A stretch of DNA of 64,000 bases from an uncultured Veillonellaceae bacterium (GTDB lineage: Bacteria > Bacillota > Negativicutes > JARBTT01), in assembly GCA_963805085.1 (NCBI GenBank), contig CAWDTA010000002.1, positions 2,074,207-2,138,206 on the forward strand. Direction: 5' to 3'. This document shows, one piece after another, positions 1,516-45,946 of this stretch (positions are counted from its first letter, which is position 1; every line of letters starts with the position of its first letter). A program made the position numbers and the translations under genes. The notes below the pieces were generated by a model. That model did not search any database and was not told the origin of the DNA. It was given only the letters and a program-made list of their open reading frames with translations.

Positions 1516-1610
1516 CGCCTCCACCAAGTGAATATGAAATATGGAATATTGCTGGAATATATAAAGTGAGCCGTTAAGACTGATAAGGTCTTAACGGATT
1601 TTGACGTTTA
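1516..1610 (+). repeat. Ala-acceptor-like 3' end CGCCTCCACCA plus terminator module (family C, copy 1)
   Basis: cgcctccacca at 1516-1526, then aatattgctggaatat..aaagtgagccgttaagac-loop-gtcttaacgg, which recurs at ~30231 and ~40451. Confidence 0.8.
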
Positions 1611-1640
1611 TAGTACGCTTACATTGGAGGGGTATTTATT

Positions 1641-1748
1641 ATGGTAAAGAGTGTGTTTGATTTGTTGGCTTCTACGATGGAACATGAAAATTCGTTCATA
1701 CATGAACTGTTACAGTTTTTGTATGACCAAATGACGAAAATTTTATAA
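1641..1748 (+). CDS. Small hypothetical protein (35 aa, MVKSVFDLLASTMEHENSF...)
   Basis: GGAGGGG SD 8 nt before ATG; followed by a hairpin terminator. Confidence 0.5.
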   Translation: MVKSVFDLLASTMEHENSFIHELLQFLYDQMTKIL

Positions 1749-1753
1749 TAAGC

Positions 1754-1791
1754 AAAAAATCCAGCTGAACATAGAAGTTAGCTGGATTTTT
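1754..1791 (+). terminator. Intrinsic (probably bidirectional) terminator
   Basis: aaaaatccagct / agctggattttt inverted repeat; similar hairpin at ~52340-52374. Confidence 0.7.
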
Positions 1792-1974
1792 ATTATAATA
1801 CTTACTTTTTTTTGACACAAAATCATCGTTTTCTGACACCATCTTTACGGTAAATCATGTTAATATCAAGGTGAAAATAATTATGAAGGCGATGACGATG
1901 ATGGATTTTAAAAGCTCTTCACAGGCGAGTCATTCGATAGTCTTATTATCAATTTTAAAAGGAAGATGAATGTT

Positions 1975-2094
1975 GTGACAGAGGCCTTACCTCTCTTTAC
2001 ATTTTGTTTAGGATTTTGCATTGGCTTATTGTTGTGGCCAAAACTTATAGGATTTAAAAAAATAACCGCTACTCTCGTCGAAATAAAGTGTTAG
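1975..2094 (+). CDS. Putative type I toxin peptide (39 aa, one TM helix plus basic tail)
   Basis: AAGGAAG SD; MTEALPLFTFCLGFCIGLLLWPKLIGFKKITATLVEIKC; 3' end overlaps the aaaataaccgcta/tagcggttatttt hairpin. Confidence 0.55.
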   Translation: MTEALPLFTFCLGFCIGLLLWPKLIGFKKITATLVEIKC

Positions 2095-2160
2095 CGGTTA
2101 TTTTGATATAAATTTAGCCTAAGCCTTTGTCAGACGACCGTTTCCAGTACGTCTTTTTAT
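2056..2160 (-). ncRNA. Putative antisense antitoxin RNA
   Basis: Convergent sigma-A promoter at 2167-2195; hairpin 2059-2104 with a U-tract on the minus strand overlapping the peptide 3' end. Confidence 0.5.
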
Positions 2161-2166
2161 ATTTTT

Positions 2167-2195
2167 ATCTTATAACAGGCAAAGTATACTGTCAA
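2167..2195 (-). promoter_or_regulatory. Sigma-A promoter on the minus strand
   Basis: TTGACA-17 nt-TAAGAT read on the minus strand. Confidence 0.65.
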
Positions 2196-2270
2196 GAGGA
2201 TTTAGGATTTAGGCTTTAGACAGAGTGACGGTTCTTGTGTCTAAAATAAGGATACAAAAAAATGAATTAT

Positions 2271-2337
2271 TAAACAAATGGAGCATGTAAAATTCAAGAA
2301 TAACCTGAATTTCACATGCTCTATTTGTTTATTTCTG
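2271..2337 (+). repeat. Long palindromic repeat, family P, copy 1
   Basis: taaacaaatggagcatgt..ttcaag aataa cctgaa..acatgctctatttgttt atttctg; similarity to copy 2 continues to ~2372 (tttgtccg..taatcaagtgaa). Confidence 0.9.
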
Positions 2338-2408
2338 ATTTGTCCGTTCTACCAACGAGGTAATCAAGTGAAGAATGACATTTTTCGCGAATGAAAAGGC
2401 TTGAAGTA

Positions 2409-2570
2409 TTAATTATTTTTATGTTTGTTTTTTTTATATGCTAAAAACTAAATTCTAATGCCGTTTGTAGCTTAATCTTGTCCTCGGTATCAAGGTGATA
2501 AATCTCATCATCGAATATAATTTCTGCTTGATCAAGGAACATTGCCAAGTCCGATTCTGAAGATATAAAC
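2409..2570 (-). pseudogene. C-terminal remnant of an XRE/phage-repressor-like protein
   Basis: Minus strand reads SESDLAMFLDQAEIIFDDEIYHLDTEDKIKLQTALEF, then an interrupted Lys-rich tail; resembles Firmicute XRE regulator C-termini from recall; HTH part absent. Confidence 0.4.
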
Positions 2571-2595
2571 AGCTAGCTACCTGAAACGATTCAAG

Positions 2596-4638
2596 TTACT
2601 TGGACGGCGCGCAATCAAATAATTGTCGTGAGCGTAAGGCAAACATTGCAGTAGCAGGCTGCTGAACATCTGTATCTGTCGATGCATCAGTGGGCTGGGG
2701 CTCTTGCCAAAGTTCAGAAGGCACTTCTTTGCCATGAGAAGTAATCCAAGTATTTAATTCTGGCTGTGATTTAGTGAACATGGAAGAAATCAGAACGTAA
2801 CGTACTTTACCCTCGTTTACCATCTGCTCGAAATCCGCAGCAGAAAGAATATGTTCCATGCCCACAAATCCACCGATAGCCATAACAGCTTGGCCCGTAT
2901 CTAGGATAAATTGGGAAGCTTCGTTAGCATTGCTTACTGCTAAAAAAAACTTTTCCCCGTTCTTATTATCCATTAAGAACTTTTCAAGTTTAACTGTATC
3001 GGAATCCCTATTACTACTACTTGACAGCTTAGGCATAGCCATACCCCGGACGTTTTGTTGTACTACTTTGGGATCAAGGTCTGGGCCAGCGTAGGGAAGA
3101 ACCGAACTACCGCCGTAAATGATTGGGGTCAATGCCCAGACTACCTGAGGAATAAAGACTGTAATGACTGCAATCGCCATCGATGTACGCAGCAAAGTAG
3201 GTCGGCGCAGCGCGTATAGCAGCAAACTCAGAGCAATTATACTAGCGAATCCGAGCACTGGAAGTAGCCAGTATCGCCATTCATCAAACTGCCAGACCAT
3301 CGCTGCCTCAACCGCCAGATTTAACGTTAATGCTAACGGTATGAACCAGCGATTACGGCTACTTGGCTGAAATATGTCAAAGAGTTCTTTTAGCCCAATA
3401 CCAACTAAGGCTGCTAACGCTGGAGCCATCATTACAAGATAATATCGGTGATAATCCACTGCAATACTAAAGAAAATTAATTGTGGCAGCAACCATCCCC
3501 CCCAGAGAAGCAGGGAAATCGTCTTAGCTCGCCCATTAGAGGAATAATCAGACCGCCTCTGCATCGCGCCCGTAAAGAAACCGATTAGGCCCAAAGGCAA
3601 AAGCCAGCTGATTTGTCCACCGATTTGACGTTGAAATAACCTTAAGATACCCGGATTTCCAGTCTCAAAAGAGAAAGAGGCCACTCCGTCTCCAATTGAA
3701 CTCGGTCCACCAAAACCGTCAGCTATTGGCATTGGACCTGGTGTCCCCGGACCGCCTGCAGGATTCGATACTGTTGGTCCAGATGCAGTCCCACTTGTAT
3801 TTCCAGATACTGGTGCACGACTTTGTGGTGTAACTCCCGGTATCTGTACACCTTTGCCAAGGAAATGCATAAGACCATTGTAACCGGTTGCCAATTCCAA
3901 TTCAGAATTAGTTTCACTGCTGCCGACATAGGGACGCTGGCTTTCCGGAGTCAGATCAACTAATAGTGACCACGATAAGGCCACCACCACCAGCAGCACC
4001 GTAGCTCCCCCCAGATTCAATAATCTGTATATTACACTGCGTCCTCCAGCTACAAGGTAAACTAGCCATAAGGCTGGCAAAACAAGAAAAGCTTCCAACG
4101 TCTTGATATTATAGGCTAGCCCCAAGATAAACATGGAAAGATAAAGCCATCTGATCTCATTCCGTTCGACCGCGATAATCATGGCCCAGGCAGCGAACAG
4201 TACCGTCATTGTCAGAAGACTATCAATCGTATTATTACGATTGGCCGCTACTGCTATTGGCATCACTGCTAGGGTAAATGCTGCCGACAACCCGGCTTTG
4301 TTTCCCCAATGACGTTTCACAAGATAGTAGATAATCGCCACTGATAGTATCCCGGCCAGACCTTGTGGAAAAATAATACTCCATCCGTAAAAACCGAAAA
4401 AATAGGCGCTGAGGGTCTGTAGCCAAAAGCCCAATGGTGGTTTATCCACGGAAATGAAGCCCCCAGGATCAAAAGAGACAAAAAATAAATTGTGAGTATT
4501 CATCAGCATACTCTTAATACTTGCGGCGTAGTATAAATTGGCAAAGCCCTCTTGATTGATTCGCAAGAAATTCATTAATGCTGCTAATAACAGTATCGAA
4601 ATAAGCCATACTTTATCCTGAGATTCTCTTTTTATCAT
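2596..4638 (-). CDS. GT-C glycosyltransferase family 39 (ArnT/PMT_2, YkcB-like)
   Basis: YYAASIKSM, DKPPLGFW, NTIDSLL and RPYVGSSETNSELEL motifs; many TM helices; GG-rich loop. Confidence 0.9.
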   Translation of the reverse strand: MIKRESQDKVWLISILLLAALMNFLRINQEGFANLYYAASIKSMLMNTHNLFFVSFDPGGFISVDKPPLGFWLQTLSAYFFGFYGWSIIFPQGLAGILSVAIIYYLVKRHWGNKAGLSAAFTLAVMPIAVAANRNNTIDSLLTMTVLFAAWAMIIAVERNEIRWLYLSMFILGLAYNIKTLEAFLVLPALWLVYLVAGGRSVIYRLLNLGGATVLLVVVALSWSLLVDLTPESQRPYVGSSETNSELELATGYNGLMHFLGKGVQIPGVTPQSRAPVSGNTSGTASGPTVSNPAGGPGTPGPMPIADGFGGPSSIGDGVASFSFETGNPGILRLFQRQIGGQISWLLPLGLIGFFTGAMQRRSDYSSNGRAKTISLLLWGGWLLPQLIFFSIAVDYHRYYLVMMAPALAALVGIGLKELFDIFQPSSRNRWFIPLALTLNLAVEAAMVWQFDEWRYWLLPVLGFASIIALSLLLYALRRPTLLRTSMAIAVITVFIPQVVWALTPIIYGGSSVLPYAGPDLDPKVVQQNVRGMAMPKLSSSSNRDSDTVKLEKFLMDNKNGEKFFLAVSNANEASQFILDTGQAVMAIGGFVGMEHILSAADFEQMVNEGKVRYVLISSMFTKSQPELNTWITSHGKEVPSELWQEPQPTDASTDTDVQQPATAMFALRSRQLFDCAPSK

Positions 4639-4757
4639 ATTATTTGCCTCCTTTGTACATATATAGTGTTAGCAAAACCATTTATTTTACCCTAGTGATT
4701 TACAAAAACTTTAGATTAAAAACAAAAAATGTGCATACTAAATGCGTCAATATAAAT

Positions 4758-4800
4758 TAATCTGACCCCAAAAAGTTAGACAAAAATTTATTAAGCAACT
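4758..4800 (-). mobile_element. IS3-family (IS150-like) terminal inverted repeat remnant
   Basis: tctgaccccaaaaagttagaca, with agttgcttaa (VA-stop, orfB-end-like) on the minus strand. Confidence 0.6.
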
Positions 4801-5132
4801 ACTCTTCGGGAGATTCTAACTCTGAAGGTTGCCACTGTGAAGTATGGATTCTTGTCATTGAGAAAGAGTAGATGTAAAGGCTGATTTTTTGATTTGATTA
4901 GTACACATTAGATAAAGTATATTTCTATATTGACTTATTGTTGACAATCCATATGGTCTTTTAATGTATGATTGGTTCCTCGTGGCATTTGCCTATTTCT
5001 TAATGATTTAACAGTTATCCCTTTAACGTTTATGATGGTCTATCAATTCTCTGCATTATGAAAAATTTTTCCTGGAGCGTATAAGCACACCCGAACATAT
5101 AATACATGACTTGAGAGGGGGGATATTGTCAA

Positions 5133-6650: not shown

Positions 6651-6765
6651 CACAAGAAATAGATGAAGCTGCATAGAAAAGACAATTTGACGATTCTATT
6701 TGCCTAAAATTACCATAGGTGAATATCTTATAAAAAGGCAACTCATTTAATCTACTTAATTGAGT

Positions 6766-6834
6766 TAAGCAAATAGGGCATGTACAAAATTCAAGAATAA
6801 CTTGAATAGTACATCCTCTATTTGTTTATTTCTG
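6766..6834 (+). repeat. Palindromic repeat, family P, copy 2
   Basis: aaatagggcatgtacaaaattcaag aataa cttgaatagtacatcctctatttgttt atttctg; followed by gatcgccctacaa (degenerate acceptor-like motif). Confidence 0.9.
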
Positions 6835-7047
6835 GTTTGTCCGATCGCCCTACAAAATAATCAAGTGAAACATAAAACAAGGGGAAGATCAAAACTTTAA
6901 TTGGATAAGAGGTCAATTAGCGAGATATCTGATAGCTGATTTTCGGGGATCAGGCTGGGAAATATATCGAGATAGTATCCGCGAAGCCTGTTTGTAGGGT
7001 ATTGATGCTTGTAAAAAAAAGATTTGAAAGTGAAAGCAGACAAGTTC

Positions 7048-7074
7048 ACATATCACATTGGGGATCATAAAATA
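7048..7074 (+). promoter_or_regulatory. Putative sigma-K promoter
   Basis: AC-16 nt-CATAaaaTA. Confidence 0.5.
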
Positions 7075-7115
7075 GATACTGAGTAAAAAATATATTAAAT
7101 GAAGGAATGATATAC

Positions 7116-7724
7116 ATGCCTGAAGTTAATTATGTTCAGAACATATTTTCCAAAATATATGAAAAAAATCTGTGGGGTAATGGCTCAGGATGGGGTTCGC
7201 TAGAGATTAACACAAGAAGCTATCGGGAGTTTTTGCAAAAATTCTTTGCTGAAAACTCCATAAAATCTGTTGTGGATATAGGTTGTGGCGACTGGCAAAT
7301 TGCAAAACTTATGAATTGGGACGGAATTAGTTATTTAGGTATTGATATAGTGGAATCAGTTATTAACGAAAATAAAAAGAGCTTTTCTAACACCAACATT
7401 GAATTTCGATGCTTAGATGTAGTACACGAAGAACAGCTACCGAAGGCAGATTTGATTATCGTAAAAGATGTCATACAGCATTGGCCTAATAAAGAAATTT
7501 TGGAATTTTTACCTAAACTATCTTCTTATAAATACGCATTAATTACAAATTGCGCATTAGGAAATTACATAAATTATGACATAAATTTTGGGTATTTCCG
7601 CCCTCTTGATTTATGTGCACCGCCTTTTAATTGTAATTGTAAGAGAGTATTCTCATTTCCAGACAAGGCTGAGCAAAGTAATTGGCAAAAGGTTGTCTAT
7701 TTGTTTCAATCAGCTAGAAAATAA
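7116..7724 (+). CDS. Class I SAM-dependent methyltransferase
   Basis: VVDIGCGD motif I, GSGWGS, DLIIVKDVIQH. Confidence 0.85.
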   Translation: MPEVNYVQNIFSKIYEKNLWGNGSGWGSLEINTRSYREFLQKFFAENSIKSVVDIGCGDWQIAKLMNWDGISYLGIDIVESVINENKKSFSNTNIEFRCLDVVHEEQLPKADLIIVKDVIQHWPNKEILEFLPKLSSYKYALITNCALGNYINYDINFGYFRPLDLCAPPFNCNCKRVFSFPDKAEQSNWQKVVYLFQSARK

Positions 7725-7803
7725 AAAAGTCCTTGCGTGTGAGAGTAAACTCAAGAGTGCATTACCATTGGAGTTGTAGGATCCCTTGGTAATGCACGCT
7801 TGA

Positions 7804-7855
7804 TGATGAATATAACTGTATGATGCTGATCTATTATCGGCAAGGCTTTTCCGTG
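7804..7855 (+). repeat. Direct repeat, family E, copy 1
   Basis: tgatgaatataactgtatgatgctga..tatcggcaaggcttttccg matches 19476-19540. Confidence 0.7.
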
Positions 7856-7930
7856 AAGTTCGGCTGATTATGGAGACTTTGACTTGGGCACCGACGAGGT
7901 GGTGAATTTTAGATAGTAAAGTATTATAAC

Positions 7931-7959
7931 TTGCATAATGTATATACGAAGTATATACT
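7931..7959 (+). promoter_or_regulatory. mazEF promoter with tandem palindromic operator
   Basis: TTGCAT-17-TATACT overlapping two GTATATAC palindromes (7940-7947, 7951-7958). Confidence 0.7.
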
Positions 7960-7991
7960 ATGGTTATAAAATAATTAGGCAGGTGTTTTCT

Positions 7992-8237
7992 ATGATTATT
8001 AGTCTTTCGAAATGGGGCAACAGTCATGCAATTCGTTTACCGAAAGAACTTATGGAAAAAGCGGAGCTTAGTGCAAATGATAAAATTGTAGTATCTGTTA
8101 ATGGCAAGGAAATTGTGTTAAAGAAATTAGAAGAAAGTCATAGTGCAAAGCTGGTTCAAAGATTTCAAAACTATGATGGTGATTATACGTGTCAAGAGCT
8201 AGAGTCTGGGAGCGACATTGGTAAAGAGGTGTTCTAA
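7992..8237 (+). CDS. mazE: AbrB/MazE-family antitoxin
   Basis: KWGNSHAIRLPK motif; stop overlaps the toxin start (TAATG). Confidence 0.9.
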   Translation: MIISLSKWGNSHAIRLPKELMEKAELSANDKIVVSVNGKEIVLKKLEESHSAKLVQRFQNYDGDYTCQELESGSDIGKEVF

Positions 8238-8572: not shown

Positions 8573-8581
8573 ATAGTGATA

Positions 8582-8626
8582 AATAGACTAAGTGGCGCTT
8601 CTCTTTGTCTCAATTTACCTCCACCA
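8582..8626 (+). repeat. Direct repeat, family D, copy 1, ending in TACCTCCACCA
   Basis: aatagactaagtggcgcttctctttgtctcaatttacc matches 10399-10438; runs into an Ala-acceptor-like end at 8616-8626. Confidence 0.85.
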
Positions 8627-10398: not shown

Positions 10399-10438
10399 AA
10401 TAGACTAAGTGGCGCGCTTTTCCTTGTCTCAATTTACC
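10399..10438 (+). repeat. Direct repeat, family D, copy 2
   Basis: aatagactaagtggcgcgcttttccttgtctcaatttacc. Confidence 0.85.
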
Positions 10439-10471
10439 ATAAGCAAGCGCATTGTTTAGGAGGGAATTTGT

Positions 10472-10540
10472 TAAATAAATAGAGCATGTACAAAGCTCAA
10501 GAATAACTTGAATTGTACATGCTCTATTTGTTTATTTCTG
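10472..10540 (+). repeat. Palindromic repeat, family P, copy 3
   Basis: aaatagagcatgtacaaagctcaag aataa cttgaattgtacatgctctatttgttt atttctg. Confidence 0.9.
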
Positions 10541-10700
10541 GTTTCCCTTATTATTCAGAAAATGATAAATGAAAAGTAAAATTAGTCTGCTGCTTTTTAG
10601 GTCAACAATTTGAATTGATGCAGTCCGGATAATAAAGAATAGACTAGTGGTATAGCAAGTGAAAAAATAACCATAATAAAAAGTAAGTATATAGTGAAAG

Positions 10701-13110: not shown

Positions 13111-14337
13111 ATGAGTGAACTAATTAAGAATCGGGAATATAGACACAAAGTTTTGAAAGAAATTATTTTGGAACTTCACCAGGGAAAGTCAGTACAGGAA
13201 GTTAAGAGTAAATTTAATGAGATCGCTAAAGGCCTGGATCCAGCTGAACTTTCACTAGTTGAACAGGGGTTAATCAATGAGGGGCTGCCGGTGGAAGAAG
13301 TTCAGCGATTATGCGATGTTCATGCTGAAGTATTCCGGGATGCATTAGAAAAAAATCCCGAAATATCTGCAGAGCCCGGACATCCAGTAGAAATTTTCAT
13401 ATCAGAGAATCAGGCGTTAATGACACTAATGGATAAAGAAATTAAACCGATATTGGACAAGTTGAAACAAGCAATTGAAGCTGTAGAAAAATCAGTTGTT
13501 TTACAGTTGACTGAAAAATTGAATTTGCTGTGGGATATTGACAAACATTACCAGCGAAAGGAGAATTTGATATTTCCGTTTTTGGAAAAATACGAGATTA
13601 CTGGTCCACCCAAGGTGATGTGGGGCGTTGATGATAAAATTAGGAGTTTGTTGAAAGTGACAAAAGAAATGGCTGCTAACTATCAGTCATCTCAAAAGCA
13701 GCCATTAATTAGCAAGATGGAAGAAACATTGGCGCAAATCGAAGAAATGATCTTTAAAGAAGAAAAAATATTTCTGCCGATGGCGATGGAGACACTTTCT
13801 GAGGATGAATGGGGCCAAGTTTTAATGGATAGTGATGAAATTGGTTATTGCTTGATTGAACCAAAACAAAGTTGGAAACCATATCGAGAAAATATAAACA
13901 AAGAGGTCATAAACGGTGCCGATGGGCATTCGGGAGGAAATGTTAAATTTGATACTGGGGTTCTATCATCTGAGGAAATAGATTTGATTTTTAGACATTT
14001 ACCTGTTGATATAACTTTTGTTGATAGAAACGGCATCGTGAAATTTTTTTCTGCTGCTAAGGATCGAATTTTTCCACGCACCAGGACTGTTATAGGTCGT
14101 AAAGTTGAGAACTGTCATCCGCCAGCTAGTGCCCATGTGGTAGAAAAAATAGTGGAAGATTTTAAAAGTGGAAAGAAAGATCATGAAGACTTCTGGATTA
14201 AAATGGGGGAAAAATATGTGTATATTCGTTATCATGCGGTAAGGGACAAAGTGGGAAATTTCGCTGGGGTATTGGAGGTTACTCAGGATATTAAGCCTAT
14301 CCAGGCTATTTCCGGAGAAAAGCGAATTATGGATTAG
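13111..14337 (+). CDS. DUF438 / hemerythrin-like / PAS domain protein
   Basis: LCDVHA, GHPV, HYQRKENLIFP, MWGVDD, C-terminal PAS with NCHPP; start after GGAGG. Confidence 0.88.
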   Translation: MSELIKNREYRHKVLKEIILELHQGKSVQEVKSKFNEIAKGLDPAELSLVEQGLINEGLPVEEVQRLCDVHAEVFRDALEKNPEISAEPGHPVEIFISENQALMTLMDKEIKPILDKLKQAIEAVEKSVVLQLTEKLNLLWDIDKHYQRKENLIFPFLEKYEITGPPKVMWGVDDKIRSLLKVTKEMAANYQSSQKQPLISKMEETLAQIEEMIFKEEKIFLPMAMETLSEDEWGQVLMDSDEIGYCLIEPKQSWKPYRENINKEVINGADGHSGGNVKFDTGVLSSEEIDLIFRHLPVDITFVDRNGIVKFFSAAKDRIFPRTRTVIGRKVENCHPPASAHVVEKIVEDFKSGKKDHEDFWIKMGEKYVYIRYHAVRDKVGNFAGVLEVTQDIKPIQAISGEKRIMD

Positions 14338-14371
14338 AAAGAGTAGGGGGCTCTTTTATTAATATTAATGA

Positions 14372-14436
14372 TAAACAAATAGAGCATGCAGAAAACTCAA
14401 GAATAGCTTGAATTTTACATGCTCTATTTATTTCTG
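14372..14436 (+). repeat. Palindromic repeat, family P, copy 4 (between convergent genes)
   Basis: taaacaaatagagcatgcagaaaactcaag aatag cttgaattttacatgctctattt atttctg. Confidence 0.88.
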
Positions 14437-14462
14437 CTTATCTTAAAAGAGACAAAAAATTC

Positions 14463-18590: not shown

Positions 18591-19478
18591 TTGAATAGAC
18601 TAACATTAAAAGAAAATCGAATTCATGGAACTGGTATGTTTCCGCTGGCAACTTATACAATCAATCGTAATAGTGGTGAAAAAATTCTTGATTGTCACTG
18701 GCATGATGAATGGGAGTTTTTATTGGTTACAGCAGGAAAAGCAATTTTTCAGATTGAAGCATCTTACTATGAAGTACATTCAGGACAGGCCGTTTTTATA
18801 AATGGAGGGAACATTCACGCTGGTTATCCTCAACAAAATTCTTCTTGTACATATTGTGCCATTGTTTTTGATCCGATTCTTTTTTGCAGCAGTTCTTTTG
18901 ATGTCCTACAAACTAAATTCATTGATCCCTTAATTAAAGGACAATATGTGTTACCTGAATTTATTTCAGGTAATTGCGAATGGGAAAAAACAGTAATTCA
19001 GTACTTTTTAAAAATTTTAAATACCTGCATGGATGGTCAACAAGCATTTGAGTTAGTGGTAAAAGCAGAACTGTTGCTAACATTATCCGAATTTGTAAAA
19101 AACAACACATTTCCCATAGACAGTAAATCCTACTTAACAAGCTATAAATCAAATCAGATGAAAAAGATACTCAGTTATATTCATTCAAATTACAATAAAA
19201 AAATAAAAACAAAAAATCTCTGCGAGCAAATAAGTATGAGTGAAGGTTACTTCTGTCGTTTTTTCAAACAAATGATGCGGCAGACTACCGTTGAATATAT
19301 CAATAGATATCGAATCAATATTGCAACGAACCTTCTTCATGAAACGGATCAAAAAATATTGGAGGTTGCATTAGGGGTTGGTTTTGATAATCTCAGTTAC
19401 TTTCACAGTATTTTCAAAAAATACATGAATTGTACTCCTTTAGAGTATCGTAACAAGAAAAAAGTATTTTTGAATTGA
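18591..19478 (+). CDS. AraC-family regulator with cupin sensor domain
   Basis: HWHDEWE; C-terminal HTH VGFDNLSYFHSIFKK; divergent from yicI. Confidence 0.9.
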   Translation: MNRLTLKENRIHGTGMFPLATYTINRNSGEKILDCHWHDEWEFLLVTAGKAIFQIEASYYEVHSGQAVFINGGNIHAGYPQQNSSCTYCAIVFDPILFCSSSFDVLQTKFIDPLIKGQYVLPEFISGNCEWEKTVIQYFLKILNTCMDGQQAFELVVKAELLLTLSEFVKNNTFPIDSKSYLTSYKSNQMKKILSYIHSNYNKKIKTKNLCEQISMSEGYFCRFFKQMMRQTTVEYINRYRINIATNLLHETDQKILEVALGVGFDNLSYFHSIFKKYMNCTPLEYRNKKKVFLN

Positions 19479-19540
19479 TGAATATAACTGTATGCTGCTG
19501 AGCGGGATGGACGTATAGTATCGACAAAGATTTTCCGATG
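19476..19540 (+). repeat. Direct repeat, family E, copy 2 (overlaps the AraC stop codon)
   Basis: tgatgaatataactgtatgctgctga..tatcgacaaagattttccg. Confidence 0.7.
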
Positions 19541-19565
19541 CAGTCCAACGCAGAGCTGAGAGACC

Positions 19566-19594
19566 ACATATATGCAATCTGTTTGGTAATACTA
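19566..19594 (+). promoter_or_regulatory. Putative forespore sigma-F/G promoter
   Basis: ACATA..GGTAATACTA (14 nt spacer); homologous to 24405-24434 and 31509-31538. Confidence 0.5.
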
Positions 19595-19855: not shown

Positions 19856-19876
19856 ATTTTGCGAGAAAAATTCAAT

Positions 19877-19974
19877 GTAATGTTTCTCTTTGTCTTAACT
19901 TTGATATAAGCAAATGATAAAGAATATAAGAAAGTAAAAACTCCAACTGATTTTGGTGTCAGTTGGAGTTTTTA
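19877..19974 (+). repeat. ~100 bp direct repeat, family F, copy 1 (ends in a terminator hairpin)
   Basis: atgtttctctttgt..gataaagaatataagaaag.aaaaactccaactga..cagttggagttttta matches 24268-24366. Confidence 0.9.
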
Positions 19975-20044
19975 TGTAGAAGCATATAATGCTATAATTA
20001 TCTTGTATATTTTTAGAATATGAGACAGAAAGAGGGGCTTTATC

Positions 20045-23560: not shown

Positions 23561-24259
23561 GTGAAAAAAATAGTTTTTATCAGACACGGTGAAAGTGTTT
23601 GGAATAAGAAAAATTTATTTACTGGATGGACTGATGTTGATCTAACAGAAAAAGGAATTGCTGATGCCAGATATGCTGGTAAAATTTTGCGGCAGGAAGG
23701 TTTTTCATTTGATATAGCATATACATCTTCGTTAAAGCGGGCTATTAAAACATTGCATAATGTTTTGGAGACGATGGATTTGTTATGGATTGCTGAGTGT
23801 AAAACGTGGGTACTCAATGAACGACATTATGGTGCTTTACAGGGATTGAATAAGGCGGAAACAGCTGAGAAATATGGTGCGGATCAGGTGGCAATCTGGC
23901 GTAGAAGTTATGATGTGAAGCCACCGCAATTGGATGAAACAGAAGCAAAGAAACAGGCACAGGAAGAAAAATATAGAAGTGTTTCACCTGAATTATTGCC
24001 ACGCGGGGAAAATCTCAAGGAAACAGTGGCTCGTGTCGTTCCGTTTTGGCAGGATACGATTGTACCGTTACTGGAGAAGGAAAAAAGAATCATTATTGCT
24101 GCTCATGGCAATAGTCTGCGGGCTTTAGTGAAATACATTGATAAGGTATCGGATGACGAGATTGTCAACTTAGAGATACCTACAGGGGTTCCCTTAGTTT
24201 ACGAATTTGATGATGAACTGCGGCCTTTGAAGCATTATTATCTGCAGAGAAATGTCTAA
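23561..24259 (+). CDS. gpmA: 2,3-bisphosphoglycerate-dependent phosphoglycerate mutase
   Basis: IRHGESVWN, FTGWTDVDL, LNERHYGALQG, AHGNSLR. Confidence 0.96.
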   Translation: MKKIVFIRHGESVWNKKNLFTGWTDVDLTEKGIADARYAGKILRQEGFSFDIAYTSSLKRAIKTLHNVLETMDLLWIAECKTWVLNERHYGALQGLNKAETAEKYGADQVAIWRRSYDVKPPQLDETEAKKQAQEEKYRSVSPELLPRGENLKETVARVVPFWQDTIVPLLEKEKRIIIAAHGNSLRALVKYIDKVSDDEIVNLEIPTGVPLVYEFDDELRPLKHYYLQRNV

Positions 24260-24267
24260 TATACAAA

Positions 24268-24366
24268 GTGATGTTTCTCCTTGTATAAACTTTCATCTAA
24301 ACAAACGATAAAGAATATAAGAAAGCAAAAACTCCAACTGATTTTGAGATGCAGTTGGAGTTTTTA
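24268..24366 (+). repeat. ~100 bp direct repeat, family F, copy 2
   Basis: Matches 19877-19974. Confidence 0.9.
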
Positions 24367-24404
24367 TTTAGACCAAGAGGCAATAGGATAGACTGTTTGC
24401 AAAT

Positions 24405-27515: not shown

Positions 27516-27797
27516 ATGGAAAATGGCAAAGGTTGGTTGTATCTTGCGGATGTTATAGACTTGTATAGCGATAAATTTGTAGATAGCTCCATGTCTGCAA
27601 GCCTTTTTGGTACGTTCAAAACTGAGTTGATTTATCATGGAAAATATAGAACCAGGAATCAGGCAGGAGCTGCTATCTTAGATTATGCTGAATCATTCTA
27701 TAATAGAATCCAACATCAGGCAAGGCTTGGATACAATTTTCCAGAAAATTATGAAAAACTTAGAATTTCAGCGTATGGATGTATCTGGCTGAGCTGA
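27516..27797 (+). pseudogene. IS3-family transposase (orfB) remnant with internal deletion
   Basis: GWLYLADVIDLYS joined directly to FGTFKTELIY..FYNR..RLGY; HSDQG region missing. Confidence 0.8.
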
Positions 27798-29542: not shown

Positions 29543-29748
29543 CAAGCTAGCGGTGACAGTACATTTTGACGACTTAAATATTATTTCGAACAGGCCCGAT
29601 GAAACAATTGGGTGATTCGCCTCCGTTGATTAAATACTGCAATTAATTGAATCCGCCAGTTTCGCGTTTTTTTGCTTTGATGATGAAAAATTTAAAGTTG
29701 AATTGGGAATTAGGCTTTAGTTACAACGAGTGTTTTGCATATTGAAGC

Positions 29749-29815
29749 AGGAGTACCTTGCTTATGATTAGCAAAGTACTCCTATTTTTTTAGGTGTTTG
29801 GATGATTTGGTCGGT
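29749..29815. repeat. Repeat family G, copy 1 (terminator plus 3' end of a small gene)
   Basis: aggagtaccttgc..gcaaagtactcct..ttaggtgtttggatgatttgg matches 45881-45946. Confidence 0.85.
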
Positions 29816-29924
29816 CTACTCCAGCAATAAACTTAGCATTTTTTATATCTTGTTTTTTTTCTTCAGTACTTCTTCCTTTTTTGCTTTGCTGTTTTTCCAA
29901 GTCGCTGCTTTTTGTGTGAGTCAT
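29790..29924 (-). CDS. Unannotated 44-aa basic protein, probable small spore protein
   Basis: GGAGGTG SD; MTHTKSSDLEKQQSKKGRSTEEKKQDIKNAKFIAGVDRPNHPNT; upstream ACATA-15-GTAAACACTA sigma-F/G-like promoter; own terminator. Confidence 0.7.
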   Translation of the reverse strand: MTHTKSSDLEKQQSKKGRSTEEKKQDIKNAKFIAGVDRPNHPNT

Positions 29925-30060: not shown

Positions 30061-30228
30061 TTATTCAAAAAAGTCTGCACGCATTGGTATAAATGCATCG
30101 AAGATGATAGAATCATCTTCAAGTGCTACAACTCCATGAATTACATTTTTGGCTGCGTGATAGGAGTCGCCCTTTTTAACAATTTTTTTCTCGTCTCCAA
30201 AGATAAGCTCGAAGATCGATTCCATCAT
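30061..30228 (-). pseudogene. C-terminal half of a KdgF-like cupin, 5'-truncated
   Basis: FELIFGDEKKIVKKGDSYHAAKNVIHGVVALEDDSIIFDAFIPMRADFFE; N-terminal HxH motif absent; break coincides with family C repeat. Confidence 0.7.
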
Positions 30229-30298
30229 GAAAATATTGCTGGAATATAAAGTGAGCCATTAAAACTGAAAAGGTCTTAATGGCTTTTTGCGTTTGTAG
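30217..30298 (+). repeat. Family C, copy 2 (degenerate acceptor end plus terminator module)
   Basis: cgattccatca then aaatattgctggaatataaagtgagccattaaaac..ggtcttaatggctttttg. Confidence 0.8.
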
Positions 30299-30419: not shown

Positions 30420-31268
30420 CTATGCAATTTGCATGATAACAAGATGTGCTGAGACAGGTCTTGTTCCTCCAGCGAGAGGAGTGATGGTTAATGCCGTTGA
30501 ATTGCCAGCAGGATTCCGAACAGTCAGTATTGAATTGACTACGGTTGTCGTCACAAGAGCCATTTCTACTATCTGAGAAGTACCTGTTGCTCGCCCTACT
30601 ACCGTATAGGCTAGGTCAGCCCCATTGAGTGTTAAAATCAGTTGACCAGCTTCGGTCACACTTACCTGAAATAAGATCTGATAAGTGCCAATTGCAGACA
30701 AATTAAATGTGCTAGGCCCAGTACGGGCAATTGCAGTCCCACTAGTAGGTCCATCTTGTGGAAAACTTACGTCGGTACCAGGTGCAACTGTCGCTGCATT
30801 ATCAGGAGGCATCAAGGCAAAAAAGTCTGCAAAACTTAATATTCCTCCGGTAGCACCAGTAAGACCAGTGGCACCAGTGAGACCAGTAGCACCAGTTAAT
30901 CCAGTAGCACCAGTAAGACCAGTGGCGCCAGTCAATCCAGTAGCTCCAGAAGCACCAGTTAATCCGGTAGCACCAGTAAGACCAGTGGCGCCAGTCAATC
31001 CAGTAGCTCCAGTTAATCCAGTAGGACCAGTAGATCCAGTAGGACTACCTGCAGGTCCAGTTGCACCAGTGGCTCCTTGGGCACCTGGTTCCGGGATCAT
31101 AAAACATGTTGTCGGGAATTTATGGCACTTATGGCATTCATCATAATCTTTACATTTTTTACAATAGCGTTTTCTGTTTTTTTTATCATTATTTTGCAAT
31201 ATATCATTTGGTTTTGGGCTATTTATTGTACTTGTATCATTAGTGTCTGATGACTTATCTCTAGACAT
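30420..31268 (-). CDS. Collagen-like exosporium protein (BclA/BclB-like)
   Basis: Cys/Lys-rich N-terminus, GAT/GLT triplet tract, beta-rich C-terminal domain; sigma-K-like promoter. Confidence 0.88.
30848..31085 (-). repeat. Collagen G-X-T tandem repeat (9/18-bp period)
   Basis: Alternating GAT-GLT codon triplets. Confidence 0.9.
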
Positions 31269-38897: not shown

Positions 38898-38989
38898 GGG
38901 CTGAACGCACTCTTTAATAGCTTTTAACTGTGTTATAATAAAATATACTAGACGCTGCCTTATTTATGTTTTTTGGGAGGCCGATAAAA

Positions 38990-40243: not shown

Positions 40244-40307
40244 TTTTCCACAGAATACTCAGTGGATTTTATGAATGAGTGAAAGCTAAAATAGCATTAA
40301 TCCATAT

Positions 40308-40376
40308 TAAACAAATAGAGCATGTACAAATTTCAAGATTAACTTGAAGTGTACATGCTCTATTTGTTTATTTCTG
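40308..40376 (+). repeat. Palindromic repeat, family P, copy 5
   Basis: taaacaaatagagcatgtacaaatttcaag attaa cttgaagtgtacatgctctatttgttt atttctg. Confidence 0.9.
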
Positions 40377-40420
40377 TTTTTTTTGTGTGAAAAAGGTTTT
40401 GTGCTTGAATGGTTACGATT

Positions 40421-40512
40421 CGCCTCCACCATGCAAATATCCAGTATGGAAAATATTGCTGGAATATAAAGTGAGCCGCTCACTGATAGGGTCTTAACGG
40501 TTTTTTGCATTT
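40421..40512 (+). repeat. Family C, copy 3 (CGCCTCCACCA plus terminator module)
   Basis: ggttacgatt cgcctccacca then aaatattgctggaatataaagtgagccg..ggtcttaacggtttttt. Confidence 0.85.
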
Positions 40513-40627
40513 GATGATATTTAGGAAAGCGAGATTATTGGCGATAGCGAAAGAACGAAAATAGTGTTAAACTATATATTATTTGCAGAATATAGATAGT
40601 AGAACAAATATTTATAAGGAGATGCGC

Positions 40628-41953: not shown

Positions 41954-41960
41954 AATTATA

Positions 41961-42030
41961 TTGACAAAGGGCGTAATTTTGACTATATTATAAATAAGCA
42001 ATGGAGCTCTCAATTATGAGGGCTCTTTTC
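41961..42030 (+). promoter_or_regulatory. Sigma-A promoter followed by an ANTAR consensus hairpin overlapping a terminator
   Basis: TTGACA-17-TATATT; AGCAATGGAGCTC (41997-42009) matches AGCAANGRRGCUY; overlaps gagctctca / tgagggctc plus tttt. Confidence 0.7.
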
Positions 42031-42043
42031 TATTTTCAAATAG

Positions 42044-42172
42044 TTTTAAGCGTTTTAGGAAATATCTTTAAATAGTCCATAACTTTGCTATAGTGGTAGG
42101 TGATTTTTATTGTTGGGCAACTTTTAGTGTTTTTGGAAATGTCTCTAGATAGTCCATAAAGTTTACTATACT
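42044..42172 (+). repeat. Tandem ~50 bp imperfect duplication upstream of the amidohydrolase
   Basis: ttttaagcgttttaggaaatatctttaaatagtccataactttgctata vs ttttagtgtttttggaaatgtctctagatagtccataaagtttactata. Confidence 0.7.
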
Positions 42173-42216
42173 AGCAATTGGTAGGTAATTTTATTGGGAT
42201 AGGTAGGTGCTTAATT

Positions 42217-43389
42217 ATGATACTAACAGAAGAAATCAAACAAAAAATAATTTTATGGCGGCGCACGTTACATAGTTTTCCGGAATTAAGCTGGGAAGAG
42301 GCAAAAACATCAAGTACGATAGTAAAAGTACTCCAAGAAATTGGAAATGTAGACATACAAACTTTTGATAAACATTTTGGTGTATGCGCTACGATAACAG
42401 GCAGTCAGCCAGGGCCTGTTATTGCCTTCCGGGCGGATATGGATGCTTTGCCAATACAAGAAGAAACGGCGGCTGCATATGAATCTAAAAATCTTGGCGT
42501 TATGCATGCCTGTGGTCACGATGCCCATATGGCAATTATGCTGGGGATAGCATCGATATTTACGAAGCACAAGGAAAATCTTAATGGTACGGTAAAGATA
42601 CTTTTTCAGCCAGCAGAAGAAGCTTCACCGTTAGGTGGCGCCCAAGCGATGATGAAAGAGGGGCTTTTGGATGGCGTATCCGCTATCTTTGGCTTACACG
42701 TTTGGCCTGAAATACCCTGTGGAGAAATATGTATCCGTAGCGGTGAACTAATGGCAGCCTCTGATCGATTTAAAATTAATATACTAGGGCAAGGGGCGCA
42801 TGCAGGACAGCCGCAGAATGGAGTTGATGCCATGGGGATGGCAGCCGATATTCTACAGGGCCTAGGACGCCTTAGAGATCGTCAGATAGATCCATTGGAG
42901 ACAGCAACCATTTCTGTCGGGACTATCCATGGCGGGGATAGATACAATGTTATAGCGCGCGAGATCGTTCTTGAAGGGACGGTACGCACTTTAGGGGAGA
43001 AAGTTAGGCACGACATACCAAAGAAAATACAAAGGCTTCTTGAGGGAATGACCGCAGCACAGGGGGGGCAGTACAAGCTCGACTACCAGTATGGTTACCC
43101 GATGCTTACAAATTGGGAGGAGCCTACCAATATTGTAATTCAAGCAGCCGGACAAATCCTGCCCGCGCAGGCTATTCATACAAATGTGAAACCTGTATTA
43201 GCAGCTGAAGATTTCGGTAGGTATCTCACAAAGTATCCCGGAGCCTTTTTTTGGCTAGGTTGTGCCAAAGAAAATGGCCCGTTTTATAAATTGCATAATG
43301 CTTGTTTCGATATAGATGAAGATGCATTAAGCGTTGGGGTGGAAATTCTTTATCAAACTGGCCTTAAAGCACTAAGTAATTATAAATAA
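42217..43389 (+). CDS. M20D amidohydrolase (hippuricase/AbgB-like)
   Basis: LHSFPELS, RADMDAL, MHACGHDAH, QPAEE, AEDF. Confidence 0.92.
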   Translation: MILTEEIKQKIILWRRTLHSFPELSWEEAKTSSTIVKVLQEIGNVDIQTFDKHFGVCATITGSQPGPVIAFRADMDALPIQEETAAAYESKNLGVMHACGHDAHMAIMLGIASIFTKHKENLNGTVKILFQPAEEASPLGGAQAMMKEGLLDGVSAIFGLHVWPEIPCGEICIRSGELMAASDRFKINILGQGAHAGQPQNGVDAMGMAADILQGLGRLRDRQIDPLETATISVGTIHGGDRYNVIAREIVLEGTVRTLGEKVRHDIPKKIQRLLEGMTAAQGGQYKLDYQYGYPMLTNWEEPTNIVIQAAGQILPAQAIHTNVKPVLAAEDFGRYLTKYPGAFFWLGCAKENGPFYKLHNACFDIDEDALSVGVEILYQTGLKALSNYK

Positions 43390-43404
43390 AAGGGGGCAAT
43401 GTTA

Positions 43405-44934
43405 ATGAGTCAGAATGTAGATGTCATTGAAGAGAACAACAAAATGGGGATTTTGCGAAAAATTGAACAGTTTGGCAATAAGCTTCCGAATCCAGCTATT
43501 CTATTTTTGTTATTAATTGTTTTGCTTGCCTGTATTTCACTGGTTCTATCAGCAATGCATGTAAGCGCAATACATCCTTCAACTCATGCGGTTATCTATG
43601 TAAAGAGTTTGATTAGCCAAGAAGGTTTACAGTGGATATTTACCAACATGATTCAAAACTATATTAACTTTCCTCCGCTGGGGATGATTATGGTTTTAAC
43701 ATTAGGCATAGGTCTTGTGGAAAAGACCGGTCTTATGGAGACCGTTCTCAAGACATCCATTCATTCTATTCCTAAAAAATATATAACCTTTGCGGTCGTA
43801 TTTTTTAGCTTTATGAGTCATTTAGCCTCTGATGCAGCAATGGTAGTCGTACCGCCGCTTGCTGCTATGGTTTTTTACTCTGTGGGACGTCATCCCTTTG
43901 TTGGTTTTGCTGCTTCGCTTGCGGCCATTTATTCAGGGTTTACAGCCAACGTTTTAATTGTAACAACGGATGTTTTATTATCTGGAATTACCACACAGGC
44001 AGCAAAAATTATTGATCCAAACATGGTTGTTACCCCAATTGACAATTGGTATTTTATGTGTTTTGCTGTATTTTATCTTTCCCTGTTAACAACGTTTGTA
44101 ACGGAAAAATTTGTTGAGCCGCGCCTTGGCGTTTATCACGGGACACAAATTGTAAATATGGATATACCTGGGCAGAAACAGGTTGTTGCTATGCGTGCAT
44201 CTGGCATCGCGGTGCTTGTGTTTATTGGTATTTTATTATTACTCGTTGTACCAGAAGGAGCTATGTTAAGAAATCCAGAGACAGGCGGTATTCCGGGCTC
44301 TCCATTTATTCGTGGTATTGTTCCGATGCTCTTTTTATTTTTTCTGACCGTCGGTCTTACCTATGGTATTAAAGTAGGCTCCATTAAAAGCGGAGATGAT
44401 GTAATCCATATGATGACGGATTGCACGCGCGATCTTGCTGGATTTTTAGTTATGGCATTTGCGATTGCACAGTTTATTGCGGCTTTTACTTGGACAAATA
44501 TTGCAACGCTACTTGCTACATCAGGCGCCGAATTTTTAAAGAGCATTCACATGACAGGGTTGCCTGCCTTATTATGTTTTATGTTATTCGGGCAGTTTAT
44601 GGGACTCTTTATTGCCAGTGGTTCTGCGATATGGTCACTCTTGTCACCAGTATTTGTGCCTATGTTTATGCTGCTTGGTTATCATCCGGCATTTATTCAG
44701 GTGGCGTTTCGTGCAGGCGATGGAGCCTTAAACAGCGTACAGATTGTTAATCCATTTCTTCCTTTATTTCTAGAAACATTAAAAAAATATAAAGAAGAGT
44801 CGGGGATTGGTACCTACTTATCCTTAATGATGCCCTATGCAATCGCTTTTTTAATCATGTGGTATATACTCTTTATATTCTGGTACCTCTCAGGATTTCC
44901 AGTTGGCCCGGGTGTCCCACAACGTTTATGGTAG
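43405..44934 (+). CDS. AbgT-family transporter
   Basis: IEQFGNKLPNPAILF, NWYF, ASGSAIW, GIGTYLSLMMPY. Confidence 0.9.
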   Translation: MSQNVDVIEENNKMGILRKIEQFGNKLPNPAILFLLLIVLLACISLVLSAMHVSAIHPSTHAVIYVKSLISQEGLQWIFTNMIQNYINFPPLGMIMVLTLGIGLVEKTGLMETVLKTSIHSIPKKYITFAVVFFSFMSHLASDAAMVVVPPLAAMVFYSVGRHPFVGFAASLAAIYSGFTANVLIVTTDVLLSGITTQAAKIIDPNMVVTPIDNWYFMCFAVFYLSLLTTFVTEKFVEPRLGVYHGTQIVNMDIPGQKQVVAMRASGIAVLVFIGILLLLVVPEGAMLRNPETGGIPGSPFIRGIVPMLFLFFLTVGLTYGIKVGSIKSGDDVIHMMTDCTRDLAGFLVMAFAIAQFIAAFTWTNIATLLATSGAEFLKSIHMTGLPALLCFMLFGQFMGLFIASGSAIWSLLSPVFVPMFMLLGYHPAFIQVAFRAGDGALNSVQIVNPFLPLFLETLKKYKEESGIGTYLSLMMPYAIAFLIMWYILFIFWYLSGFPVGPGVPQRLW

Positions 44935-44977
44935 TCGGATACCTTGGCTGATATAATCTAAATATATAGACGAAATC

Positions 44978-45027
44978 AAATCTTCCTATACTCATGGTGC
45001 ATAGATACATGAGTATAGGAAGATTTC
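44978..45027. terminator. Long-stem terminator
   Basis: aaatcttcctatactcatg / catgagtataggaagattt perfect inverted repeat. Confidence 0.8.
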
Positions 45028-45278
45028 TTTATGCGAAGAAATGGTGGCAGGATACGTTGTTAACTTGATAGTATGAATTGACGTTAAATACATAAGCAAG
45101 TGAACCTATTGCTGATTCGAATAATATCTTGTCGTTTTTTGTATACATAAACAAAAGTTATACCATGGGAGTTGACAATGAAATAATTCCTATGATATCT
45201 TAAATCGTATTAAAATGGATGTCTTATAAGCAATAAGGCTTATAAAGTCAATATTTTAGAAGGTAGGAAAGAGTCGGT

Positions 45279-45794
45279 ATGAAACAACAATCCTTAGGTC
45301 ATACAAAACAACTGGTTTATGCAGCATTGGGCATTGCCCTCGTTTTTATTTGTACGTCATTTTTAAATCTTCGTCTTCCCATTGCCGCTAATGGCGGTCT
45401 AGTTCATTTGGGAAATGTGCCCCTCTTTGTGATTGCCATTCTTTACGGACGCCGGTTTGGTGCTTTGGCCGGAGGAATCGGTATGGCTCTTTTTGATGTG
45501 GTGGGCGGCTGGTTTTTATGGGCGCCTTTTACGTTGGTCATCGTAGGTCTCATGGGGTATACGGTCGGCGCTATCTGTGAAGAACGCCGCACCATGAAGG
45601 CTTATGTCCTAGCCTTTATGGCGGCTTGTCTCATTAAGGTGGCTGGTTATTATGGTGCCGAGGGACTTATTTACGGCAATTGGCTGGTGCCGATGACGTC
45701 GATTCCCGGTAATCTTGTCCAGATCGGTGTGGCGGCAATTATCGTGTTGCCTATCGTGAACAAGTTAAGAAAGCGTTTGGATGCTTCTTACTAA
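45279..45794 (+). CDS. ECF transporter S component (possibly vitamin B6 type)
   Basis: GGLVHLGN, GGIGMALFD, WAPFT, SIPGN; specificity is inference. Confidence 0.85.
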   Translation: MKQQSLGHTKQLVYAALGIALVFICTSFLNLRLPIAANGGLVHLGNVPLFVIAILYGRRFGALAGGIGMALFDVVGGWFLWAPFTLVIVGLMGYTVGAICEERRTMKAYVLAFMAACLIKVAGYYGAEGLIYGNWLVPMTSIPGNLVQIGVAAIIVLPIVNKLRKRLDASY

Positions 45795-45880
45795 TTAGGA
45801 GACTGCAAAAAAATGATCTCAGCCACTTCCTCGAAATTCCTGCATATTTTCGTTGATATTTACAAAATTGATGATGAAAT

Positions 45881-45946
45881 AGGAGTTCTTTGCTTATGAT
45901 TCGCAAAGTACTCCTGTTTTTAGGTGTTGGGGTGATTTGGCTGGTT
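45881..45946. repeat. Repeat family G, copy 2 (relic of the small spore gene 3' end plus terminator)
   Basis: Minus strand reads NQPNHPNT-stop with no upstream start. Confidence 0.8.

Follow-up and report, generated by a model that had tools for sequence, protein, structure and literature searches.

A hypervariable zone downstream of ssrA

The stretch of DNA analysed here (the window) comprises the final 64 kb of contig C2 in the five-contig, 4.2-Mb genome assembly of an uncultured Massilibacillus-like Negativicute (GCA_963805085.1, hereafter G000). Between positions 1516 and 45946, the window carries an array of gene blocks separated by six families of intergenic repeats, denoted P, C, D, E, F and G, which a preliminary description of the locus took for the capture sites of an integron-like platform grown by polar, site-specific insertion of small cassettes. 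A repeat finder locates all six families where they had been placed, with the same copy numbers in the window (five for P, three for C and two each for D, E, F and G) and exclusively as direct copies; P is palindromic and so also matches itself on the opposite strand. The repeats are genuine, far from what chance would produce, clustered locally and uniform in orientation; they do not constitute a single system of recombination sites. On balance, the array is probably a decayed zone of tandem islands behind ssrA, the gene for transfer-messenger RNA (tmRNA), that has been reshuffled at ordinary direct repeats, and not an integron-like capture machine. All coordinates are window positions, with negative values lying upstream of the window start.

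ARAGORN predicts a single tmRNA gene, ssrA at -38585..-38232 on the plus strand, 38 kb upstream of the window, as the preliminary description had anticipated, and no tRNA or tmRNA inside the window. A search of the window against Rfam at gathering scores yields no match and no tmRNA fragment above threshold; when positions 1-47000 are searched at E values up to 1, only five chance matches to microRNA families, three of them on P, and one to a Listeria small RNA appear. According to the GC skew, the origin is located near 0.82 Mb on contig C2, so that the window belongs to the right replichore and its plus strand is leading.

The zone was compared with G001, the sole genome of the same genus in the collection, which is fragmented and 93-99% identical to G000; with a second relative, G004; and with 35.4 kb of M47, a 112-kb metagenome contig. 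A class sample of 41 genomes and contigs assembled from sequencing runs (Logan), none of which covers more than 12% of the sampled words, were searched as well. The G000 assembly is 83% complete, and hence absences from it are weak evidence.

DNA and protein comparisons show that the left border, smpB-ssrA, is syntenic with G004, and so is the right border:

47076-51395 (+): conserved right flank of the variable zone, four genes, syntenic with G004 3125372-3130042.

Between these borders lie 85 kb in G000 vs 64 kb in G004; the genes common to both are few and differently arranged. The repeat interval is the distal half of this hypervariable zone of about 85 kb, which is anchored at ssrA. The zone sits where tandem tmRNA islands are expected, immediately behind ssrA and bordered by conserved flanks, with synteny lost in the interval.

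Displaced 3' ends of ssrA

The last 12 bases of ssrA (TCGCCTCCACCA) have three exact copies in the 4.2 Mb searched on both strands, namely, ssrA itself and the sites at 1515 and 40420, all on the plus strand and all in the zone. The sequence that follows the CCA end is of two types: type I stands behind the active ssrA in G000 and G001, and type II behind the active ssrA in G004. Both types recur downstream in G000, where the following features are related to ssrA.

1506-1613 (+): C copy 1, fossil 3' end of ssrA with an exact TCGCCTCCACCA at 1515-1526, a type II downstream flank (1527-1613) and a terminator hairpin (free energy, dG, -16.3).
30229-30298 (+): C copy 2, type II flank and terminator, no ssrA core.
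40411-40516 (+): C copy 3, fossil 3' end of ssrA with the exact 12-mer at 40420-40431, a type II flank (40432-40516) and a terminator.
29590-29680 (+): decayed ssrA 3' end with type I flank and terminator (81% over 64 nt, E 2e-8), absent from the preliminary description.
6901-6998 (+): copy of internal ssrA positions 162-259 (84.7% over 98 nt, E 2e-21).

The C copies are mutually 82-85% identical in a self-comparison, and 1515-1566 is 84.6% identical over 52 nt to the active ssrA end and flank of G004. In copy 2, the ssrA core has been lost, because that stretch is the start of a minus-strand open reading frame (ORF); the acceptor end that had been read at 30217 is therefore only flank and terminator. 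Thus, different flanks stand right behind an identical ssrA 3' end in G000 and G004, and each flank type is also present as a fossil downstream; G004 has an ssrA fossil of its own at 3074733. Where a new flank stands behind a gene end that has not changed, and the former end is found further downstream, integration into the tmRNA gene is indicated, a principle set out in both PMC4383910 and PMC3146451. The C family may accordingly be regarded as the usual trace of serial integration at ssrA, and we infer from the fossils at least three such events. The C copies are displaced ssrA 3' ends, so that polar, site-specific insertion, as proposed, did play a part, but this does not extend to a single system embracing all families.

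The internal ssrA copy at 6901-6998 is equidistant (85-86%) from the ssrA genes of G000, G001 and G004 and would not arise by attachment-site duplication. A second exact ssrA 12-mer in G001 (contig C122) sits in unrelated coding DNA and is a chance match. In G004, a gene for a group II intron reverse transcriptase/maturase (C7:3062102-3063376) directly follows the ssrA terminator and is itself followed by a Mutator-family transposase.

No match to Phage_integrase (PF00589) or Resolvase is detected from ssrA to the contig end (102 kb; C2 from 2.03 Mb), so that the absence of an integrase remarked upon in the preliminary description extends over this whole interval; neither an integron integrase at the array nor an integrase adjoining an attachment site was found in the G000 zone. 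Only three Phage_integrase matches exist genome-wide in G000, all outside the zone. The G004 zone holds one tyrosine recombinase of 182 aa, which does not adjoin a repeat and has no counterpart among these three. The 299-aa type that gives the top score in G001 and G004 is not represented among the three.

The P hairpin as part of an eroded gene module

Upstream of the window, intact units consist of P, one or two HTH_3 (Xre-type) genes of 73-76 aa on the minus strand, a DUF6809 gene of 110 aa on the plus strand, and small ORFs. Parts of such units are recognizable in the window.

1623-2211 (+): DUF6809 N-terminal remnant (1623-1688; tblastn E 1e-6), followed by module segments X and Y.
2217-2374 (+): P module, with D hairpin 2217-2247 and P hairpin 2271-2331 (nhmmer E 9e-39; dG -31.3, z -8.4).
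2417-2554 (-): remnant of a second HTH_3 gene ("ORF132"; tblastn, 46 aa at 74%, E 4e-18).
6680-6872 (+): P module after a hydrolase gene; xre remnant at 6821-6910 on the minus strand (30 aa, E 9e-7).
7720-7907 (+): E copy 1, a frameshifted DUF6809 pseudogene with internal stops (tblastn E 2e-8).
10401-10563 (+): P module (D and P hairpins) between the MCRA gene (-) and an NADH oxidase gene (+); dG -35.6, z -8.5.
14335-14451 (+): P module between convergent hemerythrin-PAS and MFS genes, orthologous in G001.
19476-19548 (+): E copy 2, a DUF6809 pseudogene fragment (tblastn, 24 aa at 79%, E 3e-6).
40250-40390 (+): P module after a PucR-type regulator gene; dG -35.6, z -11.1.

The intact xre ORF terminates within the right arm of P, which holds the xre stop codon, and tblastn detects C-terminal xre remnants directly behind four further P copies, at -12714, -1802, 2324 and 6821 (that at 2324-2371, on the minus strand, is 94% identical over 16 aa). 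The "acceptor-like" motif noted after P at 6766-6855 (and at 2340-2372) turns out to be the reverse complement of xre C-terminal codons and is not tRNA-like. DUF6809 remnants are found at 1623, at 7720 and 19477 (the two E copies), and as tandem partial copies. In a self-comparison, multi-part collinear module copies are 88-94% identical; for example, 1688-2066 is 93% identical to -13737..-13361, and 2056-2211 is 92% identical to -11266..-11114. The long collinear multi-part copies are spaced 13-16 kb apart. P, the "acceptor-like" motif and E are thus, from these alignments, parts of one gene module.

P forms a hairpin of 25-28 bp on either strand (dG -31 to -36 kcal/mol, z -8 to -11), flanked by A-rich and T-rich tracts, with T-rich tracts on both sides; RNAalifold predicts 25 pairs, four of which show compensatory change. 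The combination of a stable hairpin and a U-rich tract is that of a predicted intrinsic terminator, and P might be a bidirectional terminator that outlives its genes.

A P-module profile (nhmmer) finds nine copies in 4.2 Mb, eight of them on contig C2 within 55 kb (-15075 to 40390), all on the plus strand. The ninth is on contig C4, the skew of which has the opposite sign, and that end of C4, read as its reverse complement, shows synteny with G004 DNA some 40 kb past the zone; taken together, these two observations indicate that the ninth copy is probably also nearby and co-oriented. It lies within a 1.6-kb segment (C4:445836-447449) that is absent from G004 between two conserved genes and that also contains a 321-aa gene with a putative M23-peptidase-like motif and an 80-nt element, repeated in G001 and G004, which by eye resembles a c-di-GMP riboswitch (a candidate). 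In searches beyond this lineage, P is missing from 38 of the 41 genomes of the class sample (the orders of G000 and G004 comprise only two genomes and one genome, respectively) and has no matches in viral contigs, and the only matches in the genome collection are two G001 contigs. Neither of two other identities considered for P fits: no P-profile match lies near any Y1_Tnp locus, as an IS200/IS605 end would, and a dif-like Xer site is disfavoured by the position of the zone, about 1.25 Mb from the skew-inferred origin and not evidently at the terminus. DUF6809 homologues are limited to a few Negativicutes; the family gave no PHROG match, and no literature on it was found. The G004 copies at 3.78 Mb adjoin a UvrD-type helicase and a RhuM fragment, neighbours that do not indicate a function.

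The D hairpin and RAYT-like transposases

D is an imperfect palindrome of about 30 nt that precedes each P, heads F, follows the lactate permease gene and also stands alone.

8583-8619 (+): D hairpin directly behind the mazF stop codon (profile E 8e-6).

After this hairpin comes CCTCCACCA, in which the preliminary description saw D running into CCACCA at 8626; the sequence is there, and the 9-nt match is too short to carry weight. A D profile, which is short and partly trained on zone copies, gives 31 matches at E 0.015 or better, ten in the zone (nine on the plus strand and one on the minus strand) and 21 elsewhere on both strands. Hence D, initially counted as a two-copy family, has at least ten copies in the zone, and two thirds of its profile matches (21/31) lie outside it. 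P, E, F and G are confined to this neighbourhood. D is distributed genome-wide in both orientations, the pattern of an ordinary family of repetitive extragenic palindromes (REPs) or terminators, which the preliminary description had itself named as evidence against its model.

The copies of D begin with GTAG in some cases and ATAG in others, are extragenic and supply a TAG stop codon. D is found just upstream of five of the 21 Y1_Tnp loci examined, where by eye it overlaps the likely -35 box. A gene at C4:178660 is flanked by inverted D copies, and its 250-aa product has as the best NCBIfam match the REP-associated tyrosine transposase (RAYT; NF047646), with 75.6 bits vs a cut-off of 80. The 31 profile matches compare with more than 100 copies per genome for REPs. 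Judging from its sequence and placement, D is best described as a GTAG-headed REP-like element, an explanation preferable to the dif-like reading that its 11-6-11 appearance might suggest.

Eleven of the 31 D-profile matches cluster on both strands at C1:312000-348000, around long collagen-like repeats at about 316-332 kb. G000 has 24 Y1_Tnp (IS200/RAYT-like) matches, e.g., C4:178660-178992; on C2, all are on the minus strand before 0.82 Mb and on the plus strand after it, tracking the switch of the GC skew, and those on other contigs follow the sign of their own contig's skew. An ORF at -12939..-12820, by eye the N-terminus of an ABC-ATPase-like protein, is cut exactly where D begins in G000 and is about 230 nt longer in G001.

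Order of blocks and junctions in related genomes

The blocks of the G000 zone are also carried by G001, M47, G004 and further metagenome contigs. In M47, the 24 matches to the G000 zone that were retained all keep one orientation but occur in permuted order, the seven P modules all lie on one strand, and junctions fall in D, P, DUF6809, ORF132 or F homology. Similarity to G001 stops at 6672, 8 nt before the P module at 6680-6872, and the same genome shows insertions or deletions exactly at both edges of the P module at -12853, where one junction, by eye, is at a short shared ATAGA inside a truncated ORF. After the stop codon of the lactate permease gene, G000, G001 and M47 are alike through the first half of D and part ways at three separate points beyond it. 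Logan contigs from four runs, in which junctions were called at 85% likeness, contain the joins 7853>10550 (three runs), 1526>4763, 8575>10470 and 14461>16977, of which 1526>4763 starts exactly behind the ssrA core. Relatives therefore break at repeats often, not always, and never at one single point: the prediction that blocks would be gained or lost at the repeats is borne out at many junctions, while several coincide with no repeat and the positions vary. Junctions at several different positions fit homologous or illegitimate recombination better than one fixed crossover site.

In G001, contig C225 carries a hydrolase block between two direct copies of about 75 nt (1-330, 1950-2100), which by eye resemble a fragment of a nucleotidyltransferase-substrate-binding (HEPN-type) gene.

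Remaining repeats and gene content of the zone

The two other repeat families and a transposase fragment are located as follows.

19867-19980 (+): F copy 1, D-like head and separate terminator hairpin, upstream of a HAD gene (repeat finder).
24258-24372 (+): F copy 2, D-like head at 24260-24290 (repeat finder, self-comparison; profile E 6e-4).
29743-29810 (strand not assigned): G copy 1, terminator hairpin at the 3' end of a 44-aa minus-strand ORF (29790-29924), with a G004 homologue at 3123614-3123843.
45875-45946 (strand not assigned): G copy 2, terminator hairpin with a probable remnant of a small-gene 3' end, read by eye.
27516-27797 (+): IS3-type transposase fragment (rve_2), domain match.

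G, and partly F, thus represent terminators or the ends of genes. A Pfam scan of some 70 proteins encoded in the zone shows mainly functions in metabolism, transport and regulation. It also reveals transposase remains (the rve_2 fragment, a split DDE transposase and a RAYT-like pseudogene), a MazEF pair, a collagen-like gene and two SASP genes; phage or conjugation genes were not found. The collagen-like gene (30420-31268, minus strand; Pfam Collagen) has at least 16 repeat units of 9 nt, and a 210-nt repeat at 19575/31519 represents the SASP gene pair, the SASP match coming via a G004 homologue. Beyond the zone, comparison with G001 reveals presence or absence and replacement of single genes at 51472-52233 and 57199-58602, with none of the repeat families at the junctions.

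Origin of the array

The six families thus do not form a common set of capture sites: P and E derive from a duplicated xre/DUF6809 gene module, D is REP-like, and G and part of F are terminators or gene ends. We propose that three ordinary processes shaped the zone. Islands would have integrated site-specifically into the 3' end of ssrA, as the fossils suggest, each event bringing a new 3' end and flank and displacing the old one downstream, so that co-oriented fossils (the C family and the copy at 29.6 kb) remain; the integrase genes would since have been lost. A module of 1.2-2.3 kb, in the order D hairpin, terminator hairpin P, xre (-), DUF6809 (+) and small ORFs, was duplicated at least eight times and then eroded, as its copies and remnants attest; P, a presumed bidirectional terminator, survives where the genes of the module are gone. 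In the third process, recombination between direct repeats (D, P, DUF6809/ORF132 remnants and F) may delete, duplicate and transpose blocks without inverting them. Permutation without inversion, together with junctions across several kinds of direct repeats, fits recombination between repeats, which would account for the differing order of shared blocks in related strains; permutation and junctions are observed, and the pathway, by deletion, duplication or re-insertion of looped-out circles, is conjectural and would be layered on the older integrase-mediated accretion at ssrA.

Several observations weigh against this scheme of decayed islands reshuffled at direct repeats. No integrase or integrase remnant is found within 102 kb, which leaves the fossils as the evidence for the integration step, and the type II C copies, three in number, could have been duplicated from each other instead of stemming from separate events. 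Several M47 junctions are at no known repeat, and G001 joins -32019 directly to 4959, a 37-kb difference relative to G000, without a repeat at either end. The MCRA block common to G000 and M47 ends 26-36 nt from the flanking D copies. Gene-level insertions and deletions between G000 and G001 also occur outside the zone, beyond 47 kb, without these repeats (G001 contig C269). Paralogous loci may contribute to the Logan junctions called at 85% likeness, and the way the D profile was trained favours in-zone matches. The identity of P between genomes, 85-95% vs about 76% for core genes, is more than a plain terminator needs, and the proposed scheme does not explain it.

The alternatives can be judged by the same evidence. 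Local segmental duplication and divergence could have produced all the repeats, including C, by unequal crossing-over, with no island ever inserted at ssrA, an origin compatible with the long collinear multi-part copies 13-16 kb apart, the mutual identity of the C copies (82-85%) and the lack of an integrase from ssrA to the contig end; we consider it unlikely, however, given that the G000 and G004 flanks differ behind an identical ssrA end and each type is also a fossil downstream, a flank replacement of the kind that integration brings about, and that one contig joins 1526, the last core base, to other DNA. Still less can be said for the integron-like platform, in which P (or D and P) would be a dedicated site and integrase-less cassettes would be moved by a recombinase encoded elsewhere. 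The core motif of integron attC sites is RYYYAAC ... GTTRRRY; an alignment of 14 P copies ends in TTAAAC ... GTTTATT, with T where purines are required. P is a gene end, containing the xre stop codon and followed by xre remnants; the blocks are not single promoterless co-oriented ORFs or small cassettes but span 1-10 kb and several genes, on both strands, with regulators of their own (AraC, PucR, GntR); and the junction positions are several, including some inside DUF6809 remnants and, for one deletion, the short shared ATAGA noticed by eye. What speaks for the platform is that P modules are confined to the neighbourhood and co-oriented in G000, G004 and M47 and are located on zone contigs of G001, that homology with relatives often stops at P-module edges, and that the P sequence is unusually conserved. 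The 182-aa tyrosine recombinase inside G004's own zone is a further point in its favour, offset by the lack of a G000 counterpart among the three Phage_integrase matches. All this considered, such a platform seems highly improbable.

The RAYT-like genes provide another possible agent: Y1 (HUH) transposases might act in trans on D hairpins and move D-bounded blocks as single strands, with the orientation tied to the direction of replication. In line with this, all 24 Y1_Tnp matches are on the strand that fits their replichore (with the sign of each contig's GC skew as a guide), inverted D copies surround a RAYT-like gene, the zone contains a RAYT-like pseudogene, three genomes part from one another inside or right after one D copy, and D has the GTAG/ATAG head and supplies a TAG stop, as REPs do in the available part of PMC3733652. 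The MCRA block shared by G000 and M47, however, leaves out the D copies on either side of it, many of the junctions are situated in P or gene remnants and not in D, no intact RAYT-like gene is present in the zone, and the NCBIfam score, at 75.6 bits, falls short of the cut-off of 80. Furthermore, mobilisation of kilobase-sized cargo by RAYTs is not known to be documented, although no literature search was aimed at it, which also counts against this route, and we regard it as distinctly unlikely. The fuller version, a REP-bounded cassette system in which D and the RAYT-like transposases would move blocks single-stranded with replication and P/xre would be carried along as terminators, giving a co-oriented, permutable array with no need for an integrase, appears very unlikely.

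Comparison with known systems

Integrons and integrase-less attC clusters consist of co-oriented gene blocks between imperfect palindromes beside a fixed site. The G000 zone resembles them in being an array of co-oriented blocks with imperfect palindromes beside a fixed site and no integrase in view; unlike them, it has no intI and no attC-type core, the blocks contain several genes with promoters and regulators, and the palindrome is the 3' end of a gene. An integron-looking array can, it seems, arise from ordinary parts, namely, fossil attachment sites, an eroded module with a terminator, and REP-like hairpins.

With REP/RAYT systems (PMC3733652, PMC2817692, PMC3337134, as far as the available parts of these papers describe them), the zone shares an imperfect palindrome, D, of about 30 nt with a GTAG/ATAG head, found behind stop codons and inverted around a Y1 transposase gene. 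It differs from them in that the D copies number tens and not hundreds and the transposase-like genes are multi-copy (24 matches). The available text of PMC3733652 reports GTAG repeats from Proteobacteria, Cyanobacteria, Chloroflexi and the PVC group, without any occurrence of the word Firmicutes. The appearance of D, a GTAG-headed REP-like element, along with RAYT-like genes in a Bacillota genome is of note, as is a strongly conserved, locus-confined element such as P.

Islands of the kind catalogued by Islander regenerate the tRNA or tmRNA target gene on integration, and the displaced fragment marks the far end (PMC4383910, in the part available). In the zone, likewise, ssrA would have been regenerated and its displaced fragments would mark far ends; it deviates in the lack of an integrase, which the full Islander definition calls for, and in ends blurred by later rearrangement. 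The closest known case appears to be that of the tandem ssrA islands of Dehalococcoides, as presented in the accessible portion of McMurdie et al. 2011 (PMC3146451), 16 of which have a six-gene integration module that includes a serine recombinase. The two have in common several direct repeats of the ssrA 3' end, all in one orientation and no more than about 100 kb behind the gene, and a high variability among strains; in the G000 zone, unlike in Dehalococcoides, no integration module was found, the repeats are fewer and more decayed, and two flank types alternate. Some of the Dehalococcoides islands also lack integration modules and are discussed in that source as cis-mobilizable or fixed elements. 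To these comparisons the present locus adds block shuffling without inversion, documented among natural strains of a little-studied Negativicute lineage.

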